From Methanotrichaceae archaeon (GTDB lineage: Archaea > Halobacteriota > Methanosarcinia > Methanotrichales > Methanotrichaceae): 12,207 nucleotides of DNA. This document shows, in pieces, positions 1,176 to 12,133 of this stretch. Position 1 is the first letter of the stretch; each line of letters begins with the position of its first letter. Where the stretch lies: positions 1-12,207 of the forward strand of contig CAVVKN010000016.1 of assembly GCA_963748825.1 (NCBI GenBank). The letters run 5' to 3'. The translations under genes and the position numbers were made by a program. The notes under the pieces are model-generated. The model saw nothing but the letters and a program-made list of their open reading frames with translations, ran no database searches and was not told where the DNA came from.

Positions 1176-1246
1176 CTTTATAAGCCATTTATAAGCACTT
1201 TATAAATCTTAAATACTCATGTTTATATACCCCCAGTTTATAAGGG
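1176..1246 (+). promoter_or_regulatory. tbp promoter region with an array of TATA boxes
   Basis: TTTATAA at 1177, 1188, 1199 and 1237; TTAAATA at 1209; TTTATATA at 1222. Confidence 0.7.
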
Positions 1247-1267
1247 ATAATCCGGAGATACTTGAGT

Positions 1268-1819
1268 ATGGAGTCCACAATTAATATTGAGAACGTGGTG
1301 GCATCTACCAAGCTGGCGGAAGCTTTCGACCTGCACAAGATCGAGGCCGAATTGGAGGGCGCCGAGTATAACAAGGAGAAGTTTCCCGGACTCGTCTACA
1401 GGGTCAAAGCCCCCAGAGCAGCTTTTCTTATATTCACTTCCGGCAAGGTGGTATGCACCGGAGCCAAGAACGTCGAGGATGTTCGCACGGTCATAACCAA
1501 TATGGCCAAGACACTCAAGTCCATAGGCTTCGAGAACATCGATCTGGAACCTGAGATCCACGTTCAGAACATTGTGGCCTCCGCAGATCTGAAGACGGAC
1601 TTGAACTTAAACGCCATTGCTCTGGGCCTGGGCCTGGAAAACATCGAGTACGAACCGGAGCAGTTTCCCGGCCTGGTCTACAGGATCAAGGTGCCCAAAG
1701 TGGTAGTGCTCATCTTCAGCTCCGGAAAACTGGTTGTGACGGGCGGCAAATCGCCAGCGGAGTGCGAGGAAGGCGTGCGCATCGTCCGGATGCAGCTGGA
1801 GAATATGGGGCTGCTTTAG
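1268..1819 (+). CDS. tbp: TATA-box-binding protein (183 aa)
   Basis: Two TBP repeats (NIENVVAS...[13 protein letters not shown]...[14 protein letters not shown] / VQNIVAS...[13 protein letters not shown]...[14 protein letters not shown]); ATG 1268 preferred over TTG 1262; GGAG at 1254-1257. Confidence 0.98.
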
Positions 1820-3530: not shown

Positions 3531-4274
3531 TCATTTGAGCTTTTCCTCGACTTCCGGGGAGCAAACAATGACCTGAACAGGTTTTATAATTATATTAGAG
3601 GTTGCTATGGCACTACCACCTTTTACAGTGTTTATGGCCTTGGTAGATATGCCACTAACTTCTATGTCCAGGTAATTTCTGGCCGACTCAGTCCCGAGGT
3701 AGCCATATTTTTTGCCGCCAGCAGCATTATCTCCTATGGCCGAGTCAAAGGCATTGTCAACTAATTGCTCAATGCCATTATCTTCAGATATTTCATCCGG
3801 CCTTTCATTTCTCGACTCATTTTCACTTCCAATAATCCCTATGTATAGATCATTGGTCAAGCCCAAATTTTCAGGATCACCATTCTGAGAATCTTCATAG
3901 ATCAGATCTCTTTTTTTGACTGTATTCACCGCGGACAAATCATTCAATCGCACCTCTGAGTGGGATTGATTCATGAGGATCTCTTCATTTGAAGGGGAGG
4001 GATGTGGCATAATAAATTTAATTTGTTTAGGCAAAGGAATCGAGGTTTTTCGCGAAGCCCATGGGAATGTGATCGTTTCGTTAGCAAGCTGAAGCTGGCC
4101 AAGTGTCGGCTTTTCTTGAGAGTGAATTAAATTAGAATGAGAATTTTTAATTCTATTGAGGCTGTCTTGTGCATTTGATAGCGGCTCAGCTACAGCCAAA
4201 CTCAAAATCATAAAAACGCATACGAAAATTAGCCCCACCAGCATTGCGCTGGTGGGCTTGAGCAAATCTTTCAT
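3531..4274 (-). CDS. Secreted hypothetical protein L1 (247 aa), paralog of 4882..5562
   Basis: N-terminal signal peptide; C-terminus GGSAIATSNIIIKPVQVIVCSPEVEEKLK nearly identical to that of L2. Confidence 0.85.
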   Translation of the reverse strand: MKDLLKPTSAMLVGLIFVCVFMILSLAVAEPLSNAQDSLNRIKNSHSNLIHSQEKPTLGQLQLANETITFPWASRKTSIPLPKQIKFIMPHPSPSNEEILMNQSHSEVRLNDLSAVNTVKKRDLIYEDSQNGDPENLGLTNDLYIGIIGSENESRNERPDEISEDNGIEQLVDNAFDSAIGDNAAGGKKYGYLGTESARNYLDIEVSGISTKAINTVKGGSAIATSNIIIKPVQVIVCSPEVEEKLK

Positions 4275-4275
4275 T

Positions 4276-4304
4276 TAAGCCATCTCGAGTGCTGAAAGCT
4301 CGAA
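4276..4304 (-). promoter_or_regulatory. Hairpin in the 31-nt S1-L1 spacer
   Basis: UUCGAG/CUCGAG stem with a 9-nt loop; equivalent stem in the S2-L2 spacer. Confidence 0.5.
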
Positions 4305-4305
4305 T

Positions 4306-4713
4306 TTACTCCTGGTTGGTCACTATCTTGATATTGTTAGTGGCTGTTGCGAAACCGAAGGCCATGGCCGTTCTATCTCCTACCTTGATATCCTCATAGT
4401 TTACCTTTATGCAGCAATCGTGGCAGGATTCAGAATTCTCCTCAGTTACCGGACAGCAATCACATTCTCCAGAATTCTGGTTTTTCTTAATTTCCAGATT
4501 GTTGGTCGCTGTGGCGAAAGGATCCACGTACCCAAAGGCCATCGCCTTATCATTTCCTATTACTAATTTGTCGAAGTTAGTGTCTGCAGTCGCAGGGAAT
4601 TTTAAAGCAGCATCCTGAGTCTCAAATATCCCACCCCCGAGAACGTTCAATGCACCAGCTGTGGAAAGAGCGGATAGCAATGCCACAACAAATAACGCCA
4701 CTATTTTTCTAAT
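4306..4713 (-). CDS. Small secreted two-repeat Cys-rich protein S1 (135 aa from ATT; track start GTG 4701)
   Basis: SD GAGGTGA (4724-4718) followed 4 nt later by ATT-AGA-AAA-ATA-GTG, giving signal peptide MRKIVALFVVALLSALSTAGA; two internal repeats ending ATATNNxxIxxNQ; linker CDCC...CHDCC. Confidence 0.85.
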   Translation of the reverse strand: MRKIVALFVVALLSALSTAGALNVLGGGIFETQDAALKFPATADTNFDKLVIGNDKAMAFGYVDPFATATNNLEIKKNQNSGECDCCPVTEENSESCHDCCIKVNYEDIKVGDRTAMAFGFATATNNIKIVTNQE

Positions 4714-4881
4714 TATATCACCTCAATATAGAATGTTCACTATTAAAAATACTTATAATTTTCGGTAAGATATATTAGTAACATAGATACTATTCGCCGT
4801 TAAGATGCCTAGCAGTAAAATTATAAATTTATACCGAGCAATCGCAAAAAATTGTTATGCTTGAAGAGGATTAAAGAATGC

Positions 4882-5562
4882 TCATTTGAGCTTCTCTTCA
4901 ACCTCAGAAGGACAGATGATGATCTGCACAGGTTTTATAATTATATTGGATGTGGCCACGGCACTGCCTCCCTGCACGGTATTAACGGCGCTGACAGAGA
5001 TACCGGCAACGTCGATGTTCAAATTGTTGCCGATAGGCTGTAATTGTGTACTTTCTCTTGCCATTTGGCCAGTTTTTTCCTCATTTTTCAGGCTGGAATT
5101 CAAAGCGTTATCAACAATTTCATCTATATGGTCATCTTCCCACCTTTCGCCTGGCCAGGTCTTCTTCGCCTTCTCTTGGCCAGTGACAGCTACATCCAGG
5201 AAATTGGCAATTCCCCGTGCTTCTGGATCCCCATACTGCTCGCCATCGTAAATGATATCTCTCTCTTTTGCAGAATTCACAACCTTCAGATCCGATACCT
5301 GCTCCGTTGAGTGAGACTCATTCAGGGCAATCTTTTCTTCCGAGGGCGAAAAGCCATACAGAAGGCCGGAAGTAGTAGGTGGTCTTACCAACCATTCGCG
5401 AGGATTATGGTTGAAAGGGCCGGATCGTGACTCTTTCAGCTCTTTTTGTAAATCAGGCAAACCAGGCGACAGCTCAGACGCGGCCACATTTAGCGAAATA
5501 AGAAGACAAATAAAAACGGCCCCCACCAGCAGACGGCTAGTGGGTTCTAGTATTTTTTCCAT
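4882..5562 (-). CDS. Secreted hypothetical protein L2 (226 aa), paralog of 3531..4274
   Basis: Start moved to ATG 5562: MEKILEPTSRLLVG aligns with L1 MKDLLKPTSAMLVG, has GAGGGA upstream and gives the same 31-nt spacer; signal peptide; conserved C-terminus. Confidence 0.85.
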   Translation of the reverse strand: MEKILEPTSRLLVGAVFICLLISLNVAASELSPGLPDLQKELKESRSGPFNHNPREWLVRPPTTSGLLYGFSPSEEKIALNESHSTEQVSDLKVVNSAKERDIIYDGEQYGDPEARGIANFLDVAVTGQEKAKKTWPGERWEDDHIDEIVDNALNSSLKNEEKTGQMARESTQLQPIGNNLNIDVAGISVSAVNTVQGGSAVATSNIIIKPVQIIICPSEVEEKLK

Positions 5563-5563
5563 T

Positions 5564-5593
5564 GTTTCATCCCTCGGGCTCATTGCCCCGAAG
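5564..5593 (-). promoter_or_regulatory. Hairpin in the 31-nt S2-L2 spacer
   Basis: CUUCGGG/CCCGAGG 7-bp stem overlapping the GAGG SD-like sequence of L2. Confidence 0.5.
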
Positions 5594-6082
5594 TTACTGC
5601 TGGTTGGTCACAATCTCAATGTCGTTGGTCGCAGAGACACCGCCAGTATTGAAGGACGCTCCAAAGATAGTCCCTCCAACGCCAGCACCAATTGCCAACG
5701 CATTTCTATTGCCGACTCTGATCTGCTCGATGTTATACTTGGGACTGCAGGCGGAGCATGTCTGGCTGTCGCCGGTATCCTGGTTCTTCTTGATCTTCAG
5801 ATGGTTGGTTGCAGTTACAGTTCCTGTATTGACACCCAGAATTCCGATCCCCGGGCCTACTCCGGCGCCTATTGCCCGGGCTAGATCATTTCCAACATCA
5901 ATCGAGTCGTAGTTCGTGTTGACTGCGGCAGGGAACTTGAATGCGCCCGCTCCGGTCTCAAATATGCCCTGACCGAGGATGTCCACGCCGCCGCTTCCTA
6001 TCATTGCCGACTGAGCCAAGGCAGGAGCCGCAAATGCAGCCAATGCCATAGCCAGCACAAAGAACATTGCTACTATTTTAAT
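5594..6082 (-). CDS. Small secreted two-repeat Gly-rich protein S2 (162 aa from ATT; track start ATG 6067)
   Basis: SD GGGGTGA (6093-6087) followed 4 nt later by ATT-AAA-ATA-GTA-GCA-ATG, giving MKIVAMFFVLAMALAAFAAPALA; shares GIFET...KFPA and both repeats with S1; CSAC linker. Confidence 0.85.
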   Translation of the reverse strand: MKIVAMFFVLAMALAAFAAPALAQSAMIGSGGVDILGQGIFETGAGAFKFPAAVNTNYDSIDVGNDLARAIGAGVGPGIGILGVNTGTVTATNHLKIKKNQDTGDSQTCSACSPKYNIEQIRVGNRNALAIGAGVGGTIFGASFNTGGVSATNDIEIVTNQQ

Positions 6083-6130
6083 AATATCACCCCATTAACC
6101 CTTTTAGGTTGTACTTAACTAAGTTTCAAT

Positions 6131-6147
6131 TATATATATACTTTTTG
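6131..6147 (-). promoter_or_regulatory. BRE/TATA promoter for the S2-L2 cassette
   Basis: Minus strand CAAAAAGTATATATATA about 50 nt upstream of the ATT start. Confidence 0.6.
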
Positions 6148-6635
6148 GTGTTTTTTACTGGGAAATCATAGATTTATAGAAATATTCTGGTCGAGAAATT
6201 TTGCATGCAATATGCATTGCCGATAATACGATAGATACTCACAAATACCGAAATGCAGCAAACATAAAGGCCCATCAAAATAATATTAGTTAAAAATTTG
6301 TATAAATAAAAAGATCATGAAAAGCAAAATAAACCAGATAAGTGGACAAGGGCTCGATCTTATCCCGTTTGCAGTAGAGACGTCGAGGCGGTCGGAAAAG
6401 TAAACAATTTTTACAAATTTTACTTAATGTCAGTCAATAATTCATTTGCACTCGAGAGATACGTCTTCATGATACTGAAACAGATAGAAGATGCCGGTTT
6501 TGCCAAAGGGAATCAATATGTGGGTGCCACACACATTATATCAAACATTGCAGTTCCCGGAACCATTGGCTTAATAATTGGCGGCCCTGTTTAGGTACAA
6601 TCAGAAATTGGAAGTAGGGTGGCAGGCGATGTTAT

Positions 6636-6701
6636 GGCGAGCGTACTGGTAATCTTCGGGCTATGCCAGCTAGTACAAATGCCTAACGAAGTTGGTTTTC
6701 T
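6636..6701 (+). repeat. Dispersed ~65-bp repeat, copy A
   Basis: Aligns to 12139-12202 with 53 identities in 67 columns by manual count; core TACTGGTAATCTT(A)CGGGCT. Confidence 0.7.
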
Positions 6702-7152
6702 TCATCTACATCTCTCCATGGATTGATGTTGCTTAACTTATTATCCACTCGGGGAGGTTCACGCCACTCTCGTGCCTTAACTATCGTTCACACGAAAATG
6801 CTTTGGGACCAATGCTTCCTTTCGGATGCGTAAGCTTTAATAACTTCTCTACGGAATAGGATTACGTATAGGCCTTAAGAATCGTTTGCCTCCTTATGGT
6901 CTATTTCCCCATTTATCTTTGAATTTGAAGGCTTTTCGCGGTTTCATGTTGCTGACCTCAAGTTATCATGAAATGGAATCTGGAGAAGGAATCAAGAAAT
7001 CGGCAAGCAGGATAACTAACCACTCAGTCCGGATGGCTGGATTGGCATCCCAGAGGGTTTGTAGCTCCTGTCACACCCAAACGAAATAGCGGGGAACCTT
7101 TTTTATTATATGAAATTAAAAAATATTTCTGAAAGTATTCACTCCTTGCCAA

Positions 7153-8620: not shown

Positions 8621-9064
8621 TCATACGAAAACTGTATTATCTATAACGATTAGATAGGTACTTGCCGCGAGATAAGGCTGTAGCCGATTAAGCTCCGAGA
8701 ATTGGGCACCTCGCTTGATTGCGAAGTCTTCGGCGAGTGCGAGAATCTGGCGTACCTCGTTCAGTTCTTGTATGAGCGCGGCAAGAATCGAAATGTGTGC
8801 AGGCGAAGCGGGAGCAGGCTCTTCATCTCTGATGATGTGTCCCTGTAAGAAGGGCACTGTGGATCGGCGCTTGACTCGCCTAAAACATCACTGCATTATC
8901 GCTCTATTCTCAGGCTCTTTATCCATCCCAGGACGACCTCTCGTCGATGCAGCCAGGAACATAAAGGCATTGTACTCAAAGAGTACGTATAACTTGCGGG
9001 ACGCTTATTTCGTTACCGGCCTTTACCTTAACACGTCCAAAATCGCTTCTGGCAAACTGCCCAT
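8621..9064 (-). pseudogene. Possible decayed gene of unknown family
   Basis: One reading frame from ATG 9064 (MGSLPEAILDVLR*...) through three in-frame stops into the 78-aa ORF with amphipathic helix ILAALIQELNEVRQILALAEDF. Confidence 0.25.
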
Positions 9065-9463: not shown

Positions 9464-9797
9464 ATGAAGAAACTTTGGTGCTTGTACATCCTCTTATTTA
9501 GCCTCTTGATAGGAGCATCATCAAGTCAGGAGTCATGGGATCTTGGTTCTCCTGGTGATTGGGTTGAGTGTAGGTCCCGTATACCATGTTGGCCCATATT
9601 ACTATCCAAATAGCGATCTTCCTATTGGGACCCAGAAATTTCTAAATACTTATCCTGCATACAGTCCATACTACTATCAGACCTCTTATTGGACTGAATA
9701 TCCTTACTACAATCTATACCGCTACCCTCACTACTACAATTTCGACTCTTATCCGTTAGGAACTTTTGGTTTATTCCACGGAAGTAATTGGTATTAG
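9464..9797 (+). pseudogene. Frameshifted Tyr-rich secreted protein (110 aa if one G is removed at 9561-9563)
   Basis: SD GGTGA at 9453, ATG 9464, signal peptide MKKLWCLYILLFSLLIGASSS; removing one G joins ...SPGDW to LSVGPVYHVGPYYYP... of the 9543..9797 frame. Confidence 0.7.
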
Positions 9798-10092: not shown

Positions 10093-10884
10093 ATGAAATA
10101 TGGCAAAATTTTGCCGGTTATGATGGCACTCGCAGCGTGCTTGCTAATTGGTATCGCATGTGGACAAGACTATCTGGGAGGTGGAAACGTTGCAAGTTCC
10201 AGTGGTAGTGGCAGCTCAATAGGATCTAGCGGAGATTGGATTAGCCCCAACATGGATGGCGGATACGTTAGAGACCGTTCTATGACAGACTCAGGGATAG
10301 CTAGCATGTTGAAGTGGCTCGATACGCCAGTCCCCAACGTCCCCTTGTACACTAAGGGTGGAGCCATTTATAACCAAGCGGTTCCCGACACCACTTTCTC
10401 TCCTTTCACGCAGTATTATGTAACCTCCGGTACGCCTGTAGTAGGTGGAATAATAAGCAATCCTACCATGTTCGATATAACGAAGAAAACACCCACAGCT
10501 GTGTACTACGGTGCCGGTGTGGGGTTGCCTTACCCCCAGTATGCAGCCACAGTGACATCCAAGACCAACGACCTCTGGATCCAAGGAGCTACAGACTGGA
10601 CACAGTATGTGGTAAGCCCTGTTGGAACCTGGCTACAACTGGTCGCCTACGCACCTGTTGCAGGGCCTGCGGGCTTCTATGAGACGACCCAGACCGACAC
10701 AACCAGTACGAAATACAAAACCTATCAGTTCAACCAGGGTTATAATACCATGAACTTCTATGCTGACCAGGTTGGAAGACATATGCTCTACTTCGTTGTA
10801 AACAGCCAGCCCAGCAACACAGTCATAGTGGATGTATTTTCCCAGGCCCCAGGGTCAACGAAGCCCGTACATACAATGTCTTAG
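10093..10884 (+). CDS. Secreted hypothetical surface protein (263 aa), paralog of 11012..12133
   Basis: SD GGTGA at 10082, signal peptide MKYGKILPVMMALAACLLIGIACG, Ser/Gly-rich N-terminus, beta-rich Thr/Tyr-rich core. Confidence 0.9.
   Translation: MKYGKILPVMMALAACLLIGIACGQDYLGGGNVASSSGSGSSIGSSGDWISPNMDGGYVRDRSMTDSGIASMLKWLDTPVPNVPLYTKGGAIYNQAVPDTTFSPFTQYYVTSGTPVVGGIISNPTMFDITKKTPTAVYYGAGVGLPYPQYAATVTSKTNDLWIQGATDWTQYVVSPVGTWLQLVAYAPVAGPAGFYETTQTDTTSTKYKTYQFNQGYNTMNFYADQVGRHMLYFVVNSQPSNTVIVDVFSQAPGSTKPVHTMS
10441..10851 (+). repeat. Tandem duplication copy 1 (partner 11393..11803)
   Basis: About 31 mismatches in 411 nt by manual count (~92% identity), no gaps, mostly synonymous. Confidence 0.9.
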
Positions 10885-11011
10885 AGGTAATGTATCAATG
10901 AAACAAAAATATGAGATTGATAATAGGTACATTTCAACCGCCTAGGATCAATGCTATCAATCTCACATATTTTTATTAGGCAATAAAATGCTGCTCTACA
11001 GGTGTGATGAA

Positions 11012-12133
11012 ATGAAATACTGCAAAGTTTTGCTGTGTATGACGGCACTCGCAGCGTGCTTGCTAATTGGTATCGCATATGGACAAGACTATCTAGAAGG
11101 CGGAAACGTTAAAAGTTCCAGTGGTAGTGGCAGCGTAATGGGATCTGGCGGAGATTATCTTAGTCCCAACATGGGCCAAAAGTACCCGACAGACTGGCTG
11201 GAAGGCGGATATGTTAGAAGTTCCGACCGTTCGATTGTGGACCCAGGAATAGCTGGCATGTTGCATTGGCTCGATACGCCTGTCCCCAACTTCCCCTGGT
11301 ACACTGCCAGTGATGCCTTCTACACCAAATCGTATAGCTACACTACGTTCTCGCCCTACACAGAATATTATGTACCCTCCGGTTCGCCTGTCGTGGGTGG
11401 GATAATAAGCAATCCTACTATGTTCGATATAACGAAGAAAACGCCATCTAGAGTGTACTACGGTGCCGGTGTAGGGTTGCCATACACCCAGTATGAAGCC
11501 ACAGTGACATCCAAGACCAACGACCTCTGGATCCAGGGAGCAACAAACTGGACACAGTATGTGGTAAGCCCTGTTGGAACCTGGTTACAGCTAATCGCCT
11601 ACGCACCCGTTGCAGGATCTGCAGGCTTCTATGAGACGATCCAGACCGACACAACCAGTACGAAATACAAAACCTATCAGTTCAACCAGGGTTATAACAC
11701 CATGAACTTCTATGCTGACCAGGTTGGAAGACATATGCTCAACTTCGTGGTAAACAGCCAGCCCAGCAACACAGTCATAGTGGATGTGTTTGCCCAGGCC
11801 CCATCGACTCAGTACCGGACCTACGCTCCGACCACAATGACACCAACCGTGTCAACGCTGCCGCAAACGACTTCTGTTGGCGGAGACACCCCTGTGACAA
11901 TCCAGTCCCAAGGCATGAGAGGTTATCAGGTATTCCTGGATGGAAATTACATAGGCACCGAGGGAACCGGTGGAGATCCTCTCGACGGAAGGTTCAGCTT
12001 TAACGTTGTTGGTAACCAGAACCACGACATTAGAGTCTACGATGGTCAGTTTAACTACCCGAAGACAATGTACTTCTCAAGGGGTGTCCAAAAGATAATC
12101 AATGTGGAACCAGGAACGGCGGTCTACATTTAG
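11012..12133 (+). CDS. Secreted hypothetical surface protein (373 aa) with Thr/Pro linker and C-terminal PEGA-like beta domain
   Basis: Start moved to ATG 11012 (MKYCKVLL, matches paralog MKYGKILP; AGGTG at 11000); C-terminal VTIQSQGMRGYQVFLDGNYIG...HDIRV resembles the PEGA signature. Confidence 0.88.
   Translation: MKYCKVLLCMTALAACLLIGIAYGQDYLEGGNVKSSSGSGSVMGSGGDYLSPNMGQKYPTDWLEGGYVRSSDRSIVDPGIAGMLHWLDTPVPNFPWYTASDAFYTKSYSYTTFSPYTEYYVPSGSPVVGGIISNPTMFDITKKTPSRVYYGAGVGLPYTQYEATVTSKTNDLWIQGATNWTQYVVSPVGTWLQLIAYAPVAGSAGFYETIQTDTTSTKYKTYQFNQGYNTMNFYADQVGRHMLNFVVNSQPSNTVIVDVFAQAPSTQYRTYAPTTMTPTVSTLPQTTSVGGDTPVTIQSQGMRGYQVFLDGNYIGTEGTGGDPLDGRFSFNVVGNQNHDIRVYDGQFNYPKTMYFSRGVQKIINVEPGTAVYI
11393..11803 (+). 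repeat. Tandem duplication copy 2 (partner 10441..10851)
   Basis: ~92% nucleotide identity to 10441..10851, offset 952 nt. Confidence 0.9.

Follow-up and report, generated by a model that had tools for sequence, protein, structure and literature searches.

A family-wide pair of secreted-type genes in Methanotrichaceae encodes a two-repeat β protein, reused as a C-terminal module of surface proteins, and its downstream partner

Curli fibers are built from small secreted proteins composed of imperfect β-strand repeats, in which Asn, Gln, Gly, and Ala residues are conserved in register; CsgA is the major subunit and CsgB the nucleator. CsgA comprises about five strand-turn-strand repeats of ~19-23 residues, and export across the outer membrane depends on the dedicated csgEFG genes. 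Archaea of the group considered here are devoid of an outer membrane. The stretch of DNA analyzed in this work (the window; 12,207 nt of contig CAVVKN010000016.1 from the Methanotrichaceae archaeon assembly GCA_963748825.1) carries in its region 3531-6082 four minus-strand open reading frames (ORFs), transcribed in the order S2, L2, S1, and L1, i.e., two cassettes in which an S gene is followed by an L gene. S is a two-repeat protein that exists both on its own (free S) and as the C-terminal domain of larger surface proteins (fused forms). S and L constitute a robust gene pair, for which no earlier description was found in the open-access literature searched and whose function probably lies in the cell envelope.

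The core of the archaeal sheath protein SH consists of two sheets of six antiparallel strands, set in much larger proteins, and SH proteins are accompanied by Ig-decorated 'sheath adhesins' (Medvedeva et al. 2024, PMC11576556). According to the available part of that paper, no accessory sheath or plug proteins were identifiable, and the same part makes no mention of S or L. The spacer plugs of M. concilii have a concentric-ring appearance and resist even 5 M NaOH, while their protein composition is given as not known in the accessible portion of the source (PMC6242892).

The coupling of S and L extends well beyond the window. An earlier reading of these genes from the sequence alone (the sequence-only reading) had proposed to follow their synteny in related genomes; in 66 related loci, L lies directly downstream of 86 of 102 S genes, on the same strand and with a median gap of 34 nt, and the remaining 16 S genes have no downstream L despite at least 800 nt of available sequence. 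Likewise, 86 of 88 L genes follow an S gene, the other two being located at contig edges. Arrangements among the loci include SLSL (25), SL (23), and SLSLSL (2). S1 and S2 share 40% identity (E 5e-30), and L1 and L2 share 38% (E 4e-54). Over 85 S-L pairs the S and L types co-cluster (distance-matrix r = 0.62); for instance, a single L cluster accounts for the partners of the S2 type in 28 of 37 cases. Duplication therefore affected the whole cassette and predates the divergence of the species, in line with the duplicated two-gene cassette of the sequence-only reading. S1/S2 and L1/L2 are old paralogs derived from this ancient event.

S (at E<=1e-5) is encoded by 77 of 105 genomes of the family, representing 13 of 16 genera, and L by 101 of 105, representing all 16. 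Two genera seemingly without S encode a short L (153-163 amino acids, aa), and directly upstream of it a divergent S-like gene (145-149 aa) with the same two-repeat layout; therefore, the pair is family-wide. S is absent from all 196 genomes searched in seven other families of the class, and L was detected in one of 388 genomes from other families of the phylum, as a 40-aa fragment at a contig edge. A word-indexed protein search returned 150 S and 130 L relatives, and those carrying an organism name are all from Methanothrix, Methanotrichaceae, or the unspecific 'uncultured archaeon' and 'Euryarchaeota archaeon'. Thus, the S-L pair is family-wide and, among the genomes searched, specific to Methanotrichaceae. 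Two entries filed elsewhere look like binning contamination: the 40-aa L fragment itself (contig C26:1-120 of genome G335, which belongs to another family), and a 2.5-kb contig assigned to a Victivallis metagenome-assembled genome (locus L033), whose S gene is identical to a Methanothrix one. Across the family, two to five copies are present per genome. The source genome holds, besides the two cassettes of the window, one solo S, one solo L, and a third cassette with a frameshifted S (contig C24, locus L004, ~1230-1735, minus strand). In the latter, S is split over two frames between the leader and repeat 1, with an intact L behind it; either a frameshift or an assembly error accounts for the split.

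The elements of the locus are the following (positions in the window).

5594-6067, minus strand: S2 gene, 157 aa from ATG; a hydrophobic leader is followed by a conserved N-terminal segment and by two repeats that bear long Gly-rich loops and are joined by a 2-Cys linker
5930-5998, minus strand: S2 N-terminal segment (residues 24-46, GGVDILG.GIFET..AF.FP), near-invariant in free S and missing from fused forms
5780-5914, minus strand: S2 repeat 1 (residues 52-96), three predicted strands, modeled at residues 51-57, 61-69, and 84-96 by AlphaFold2 (AF2)
5600-5734, minus strand: S2 repeat 2 (residues 112-156), offset from repeat 1 by exactly 60 residues in the downstream direction
4882-5583, minus strand: L2 gene, 233 aa, or 226 aa with the ATG at 5562, beginning 10-31 nt past the S2 stop
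4702-4881, minus strand: AT-rich spacer of 180 nt between the cassettes, with a TATA-like AT-rich run at ~4833-4821 and a Shine-Dalgarno (SD)-like GAGGTGAT at 4724-4717 before S1, as read from the sequence
4306-4701, minus strand: S1 gene, 131 aa from GTG, with short loops and a 6-Cys linker
4477-4578 and 4312-4401, minus strand: S1 repeats (residues 42-75 and 101-130, respectively)
3531-4274, minus strand: L1 gene, 247 aa, beginning 31 nt past the S1 stop
3573-3677, minus strand: L1 residues 200-234, the best-conserved part of L, weakly S-repeat-like and containing invariant alignment columns
6068-6140, minus strand: S2 5' region, with an SD-like GGGGTGAT at 6093-6086 and a TATATATATA run at 6140-6131, also read from the sequence

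The region upstream of S2 contains an AT-rich TATA-like run similar to that of the inter-cassette spacer, and both regions are putative promoters. Upstream of both S genes (4702-4724 and 6068-6093, minus strand), the reading frame continues through a common context, ...G-D-I-I-K/R-..., after an SD-like GGTGAT, so the true starts may be other than ATG; in some relatives the open S frame extends beyond this point and includes an ATG. The true start of S2 could be the in-frame ATT at 6082-6080 behind the SD-like GGGGTGAT, and non-canonical S starts (ATT or ATA) a few residues upstream are possible in general. Each of the four products has a strongly hydrophobic N-terminus (Kyte-Doolittle mean of 2.6-3.3 over the best 12 aa) and, after it, a small-residue site. 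The four secreted-type genes of the sequence-only reading are thus present, and their N-termini can be read as putative Sec leaders, which would make S and L secreted proteins. The assumed mature proteins are all acidic (pI 4.5-5.1), with sizes of 12-14 kDa for S and 22-24 kDa for L.

The two copies of one unit that had been claimed for S are confirmed by hhalign, which aligns the profile of repeat 1 with that of repeat 2 over 44 columns (E 4.3e-19). Of 46 well-occupied columns, 12 hold one and the same residue in the two repeats at a conservation of at least 80%, always N, G, A, V, I, or Q. As the same Asn, Gln, Gly, and Ala positions are identical in both repeats, the alignment suggests that the repeats stack in register. 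Throughout the family alignment the loops are variable and the cores invariant, and the segment ahead of repeat 1 in free S (residues 24-46 of S2) is conserved better than the repeats themselves. The linker between the repeats contains two near-invariant Cys residues, and up to six in S1. These residues fit the Dsb-like proteins reported in sheathed lineages, where disulfides are stressed as important for the sheath, in the part of the source that is available (PMC11576556).

The AF2 model of S has a low predicted local distance difference test score (pLDDT of 57) and contains three strands per repeat, six in all. Foldseek gives no significant match to this model in PDB (best E 1.6), and the wide VIA-align search gives no chain at Z>=2. 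The L1 model is somewhat better defined (overall pLDDT of 66, rising to 80-88 in two cores, residues 95-150 and 199-230); its best Foldseek match is non-significant (E 2.4), the best VIA-align Z equals 2.4, and no solved fold is matched. Sequence searches agree with the earlier claim that the proteins fall outside named families. At E<=1, Pfam gives no family for S1, S2, and L1, and only sub-threshold unrelated matches for L2; NCBIfam, PADLOC, and PHROGs return no match for S or L. A profile search of PDB sequences yields no match for S and two chance-level matches for L, while scores in the ESM Atlas do not exceed 0.79 for S1, and L1 has no usable match there. None of 509 pattern matches in viral contigs was confirmed, and no description of S or L was found in the open-access literature searched.

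Transcripts join the two genes of each cassette. Contigs from two groundwater metatranscriptomes of different studies bridge the S1/L1 junction (RNA contig 3926-4662) and the S2/L2 junction at depths of 90-650, vs 5-41 for contigs on TBP, HisRS, and other neighboring genes in the same runs. In two further runs, the RNA contigs within the cassette lie on S1 and S2 only, and in run X2 the depth is 419 for S vs 5.4 for L1. This is a weak hint that the S-L genes, S most of all, are well transcribed, and a hint only, because contig depth cannot rank genes and the runs were selected by this very stretch.

S also occurs in fused forms. An exhaustive profile search of 1.84 billion protein representatives (84 S matches) revealed 12 long relatives (212-694 aa). 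Each of the 12 has the S domain as its extreme C-terminus (0-2 residues follow it), and in each the domain starts at position 41-45 of the 158 positions of the S hidden Markov model (HMM), i.e., without the leader and the conserved N-terminal segment, usually behind a Pro-rich linker. The N-terminal parts are diverse: GEVED (5), DUF11 (3), VWA (1), cohesin (1), and unassigned (2). In a quick tree, all 12 fused S domains group with S1 of the source genome in one clade (SH-aLRT 96). As a C-terminal module, the S domain is portable among multidomain surface proteins. Two candidates were set aside: the Omnitrophota giant protein P0304 matches positions 15-55 of the S HMM only, and P0253 (TPR plus partial S) looks like the product of a chimeric contig. 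A word-indexed search aimed at longer fused forms gave a single protein, of 237 aa.

All 12 fused proteins come from short metagenome contigs without taxon names. A 3-kb flank from one GEVED-S contig has counterparts of 70-90% nucleotide identity in 58 of 58 genomes of the source genus; therefore, at least that GEVED-S fusion belongs to Methanothrix, as a strain-variable gene. A metagenome scan with the fused protein P0274 found 29 loci, with the full fused gene in two of them and the GEVED match alone in the others. One of the fused-gene loci (L088) also carries, at 660-2400, three tandem paralogs of a small protein starting with MSMK.KIKITG; every one of the 58 genomes of the genus has several stretches of related DNA, so these genes belong to a multi-copy family.

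The GEVED part of the traced fused protein is ~50% identical to proteins of another methanogen genus of the phylum, and in five of five of those homologs the place of the S domain is taken by a PEF-CTERM tail (TIGR03024, 38.3 bits, cut-off 23). S itself carries no such signal: in place of the tripartite PEF-CTERM organization (motif, transmembrane helix, and basic tail), S and the fused proteins end in a β-strand (...NQQ or similar) without a hydrophobic tail, and NCBIfam detects no sorting domain in the fused proteins P0274, P0273, P0289, and P0307. The source genome (94.9% complete) contains neither an exosortase/archaeosortase (PF09721) match nor a PEF-CTERM match. Given the C-terminal S module and its exchange with PEF-CTERM, envelope attachment or co-assembly fits the data at least as well as a free-standing fiber.

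S and L are conserved as a pair, carry putative export leaders, and are confined, among the genomes searched, to a family whose envelope is peculiar; in addition, S recurs as the tail of adhesin-like proteins, at the position of a known anchor signal. All of this points to the cell envelope, where the pair probably fastens or builds something. The reading tentatively favored here is that S is a module for envelope docking or for co-assembly with an extracellular structure, and L its predicted cognate partner. The S domain, a self-contained module of two three-strand repeats of about 45-60 residues that are joined by a Cys-bearing linker and may stack in register, would dock into or co-assemble with the sheath, a plug, or a fiber. 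Free S, with its extra conserved N-terminal segment, could represent the abundant passenger-less form, while in other Methanothrix strains the S domain at the C-terminus of adhesin-like proteins (GEVED, DUF11, VWA, and cohesin) would lead to their display at the envelope. L, encoded 10-65 nt downstream and probably co-transcribed, might serve as an extracellular socket, anchor, or assembly factor, possibly pairing β-strands with S through its conserved C-terminal unit.

Several observations weigh against this docking model. The AF2 models are weak (pLDDT of 57 for S and 66 for L) and match no solved fold. Of the fused architectures, GEVED-S alone was traced to the genus, and none of the 105 species-representative genomes contains a fused form, the open frames there being at most 270 aa long. 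Neither of the two fused-gene contigs carries an L (0.57 kb is available downstream in L088 and 1.3 kb in L089); a fused S domain can therefore do without an L in cis. The solo S and solo L of the source genome depart from strict pairing. Contig depth is also a poor measure of expression, and the envelope location and the S-L binding are reached by inference.

Two other explanations agree less well with the data. S and L could be soluble secreted proteins without a structural role, such as a Cys-linked metal or ligand binder and its helper, in which case the fusions would merely add a binding module. The 2 to 6 Cys residues of the linker and the acidity of the mature proteins (pI 4.5-5.1) are compatible with such a role, and the low-confidence monomer model offers no fold-based reason to discard it. 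However, the number of Cys residues varies, the invariant residues (N, Q, G, and A) lie in strands and do not resemble a typical ligand site, and the extreme C-terminal position behind Pro-rich linkers, exchangeable with PEF-CTERM, is typical of attachment modules. With two to five copies per genome kept through the whole family, which suggests a structural role, a soluble binder appears improbable.

A polymorphic toxin-immunity system would explain the C-terminal position of S on diverse N-terminal parts, the small gene directly downstream, and the tandem arrays (SLSL in 25 loci, SLSLSL in 2), if S were the toxin of varied surface proteins, L the immunity protein, and the arrays orphan modules. 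Yet S2-type orthologs are 85-97% identical across species (97% for the cluster representative of S2) rather than hypervariable, and the invariant N, G, A, and Q residues of the repeated strands do not form a catalytic-looking set. L has a putative export leader of its own, each S likewise has its own leader, and both S2 and S1 are preceded by their own promoter-like regions. In addition, both fused-gene loci are without an adjacent L, and PADLOC and PHROGs are blank, which together make this system highly improbable.

The sequence-only reading had postulated one β-hairpin repeat common to S and L, and in that form the claim was not confirmed. BLASTP finds no match between S and L, and a whole-profile hhalign comparison aligns 17 columns only (E 0.054, probability 1%). 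Chosen S and L sub-profiles reach E 0.0015-0.0022 (probability 13-17%), one of these alignments covering 35 columns in the register originally proposed; column-shuffled controls score as high in 1 of 295 and in 2 of 295 trials, for a region picked after the fact. Among 38,057 six-frame ORFs of the source genome, the S-repeat HMM places no L among its top 30 matches, and the HMM of the L C-terminus retrieves S1 only at E 7.2. The degenerate earlier copy of the unit described in L comes down to a 13-column match (E 7e-4). The resemblance is taken here as a lead and not as a finding. From the proposed two-gene module there remain its conservation, its undescribed status, and the β-strand repeats with in-register Asn, Gln, Gly, and Ala, whereas the homology of S and L is statistically weak.

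That homology underlay the analogy with CsgA/CsgB, i.e., a major subunit and a homologous nucleator. In a curli- or Fap-like functional amyloid, S would be the polymerizing major subunit, its repeats forming a cross-β stack that continues from one molecule to the next, L a homologous minor nucleator, cap, or anchor, and the two cassettes loop variants of the fiber. This idea accords with the N, Q, G, and A residues that the two repeats keep in register (12 of 46 columns), with the three strands predicted for each repeat, and with the variable loops on invariant cores; a two-rung stack would have open edges that could polymerize. The depths of 419 for S and 5.4 for L1 in run X2 fit a major/minor stoichiometry, within the limits of contig depth, which cannot rank genes. 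The C-terminal unit of L is weakly S-repeat-like, and the top Foldseek matches of the S and L models are FapC fibrils, at a non-significant level (E 1.6 and 3.9, TM ~0.1). Fused passengers could be displayed along the fiber, and the ones without the N-terminal segment of free S might cap its ends, by analogy with the two-domain tip adhesins of chaperone-usher pili. Against the fiber, the S-L homology is non-significant in unbiased tests, neither the curlin repeat model nor any other Pfam family matches at E<=1, and S has two long repeats instead of five or more short ones. Polymerization of S is hypothetical, while the C-terminal fusions and the PEF-CTERM swap point to anchoring. A free-standing fiber is therefore rather unlikely. 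The anatomy given by the sequence-only reading was largely right, the fusions add to it a dimension of anchoring or co-assembly, and the amyloid mechanism is a proposal.

S and L might also be building blocks of an envelope structure specific to Methanothrix, in which S would stack end to end by cross-β pairing, L would seed or anchor the stack, and passengers would join the lattice through their C-terminal S domain. The alkali-resistant concentric-ring spacer plugs, or links between sheath hoops, may be such structures. This reading is distinctly unlikely; if true, the S-L lattice would be a new self-assembling surface-display system that replaces archaeosortase anchoring in a sheathed archaeon.

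The surroundings of the cassettes contain further features. The ~1 kb upstream of S2 (6106-7150) is AT-rich (35-43% GC), has no ORF of at least 70 aa, and is nearly devoid of RNA contigs; many related genomes have a further S-L cassette upstream of the S2-type one. Region 8671-8861 is represented by RNA contigs of three metatranscriptome studies at depths from ~5,000 to 110,000, vs 5-41 on neighboring housekeeping genes. It has no Rfam match even at E<=1 and no tRNA, and its folding is no better than that of shuffled sequences (z of 0.20 and -0.33 by strand). A 78-aa minus-strand ORF without a Pfam match (8621-8857) overlaps this abundant transcript. An 84-aa plus-strand ORF at 9543-9797 is very rich in Tyr and Pro, has a hydrophobic N-terminus, and matches nothing in Pfam or NCBIfam. 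Two plus-strand paralogs at 10093-10884 and 10988-12133 (263 and 381 aa, respectively) have hydrophobic leaders, Ser/Gly-rich N-termini, and partial RNA contig cover; they match nothing in Pfam, NCBIfam, or the PDB sequences, and may be further envelope proteins.

Methanothrix is a major acetate-consuming methane producer whose sheath, plugs, and surface determine how filaments grow, how granules form, and how contact is made with syntrophic partners. The S-L pair is a concrete candidate for the missing inventory of sheath and plug proteins, as far as that inventory is set out in the available parts of the two sources (PMC6242892, PMC11576556). The S domain, in turn, may represent a new means of attaching proteins to the archaeal envelope.

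Among the described systems, curli resemble the locus in that S is a secreted β-repeat protein with Asn, Gln, Gly, and Ala in register, encoded beside a second secreted gene that possibly shares a repeat-like unit. They differ in the repeats, two of 45-60 residues with three predicted strands each in S vs five of ~22, and Curlin_rpt (PF07012) does not match S1, S2, L1, or L2 at E<=1. Moreover, the S-L homology is non-significant, and the S domain is also the C-terminal module of large proteins. With Fap (FapC/FapB), the locus shares the combination of a repeat-built secreted β protein and a partner, and FapC fibrils are the top Foldseek matches for both models; these matches are non-significant (E 1.6-5, TM ~0.1), however, and there is no sequence relation.

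The archaeal sheath protein SH occurs in the same organisms and belongs, as described in the available part of the source, to amyloid-like envelope β proteins that combine one structural core with varied display domains (PMC11576556). S, in contrast, has six predicted strands in total (pLDDT of 57) and a size of ~12-14 kDa, and is set apart from SH by the description of the latter only. Polymorphic toxin-immunity systems likewise place a C-terminal domain behind varied N-terminal parts, with a small gene downstream and tandem arrays, whereas S is conserved and without apparent catalytic residues, L is putatively exported, and two fused genes have no L beside them. PEF-CTERM (TIGR03024) is similar in position and not in membership: the S domain, too, sits at the extreme C-terminus behind a linker and on the same kind of passenger. 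Unlike PEF-CTERM, S is a predicted folded β domain of ~90-115 residues that ends in ...NQQ, without a transmembrane helix or basic tail, and it also occurs on its own, as free S, with a partner gene dedicated to it.

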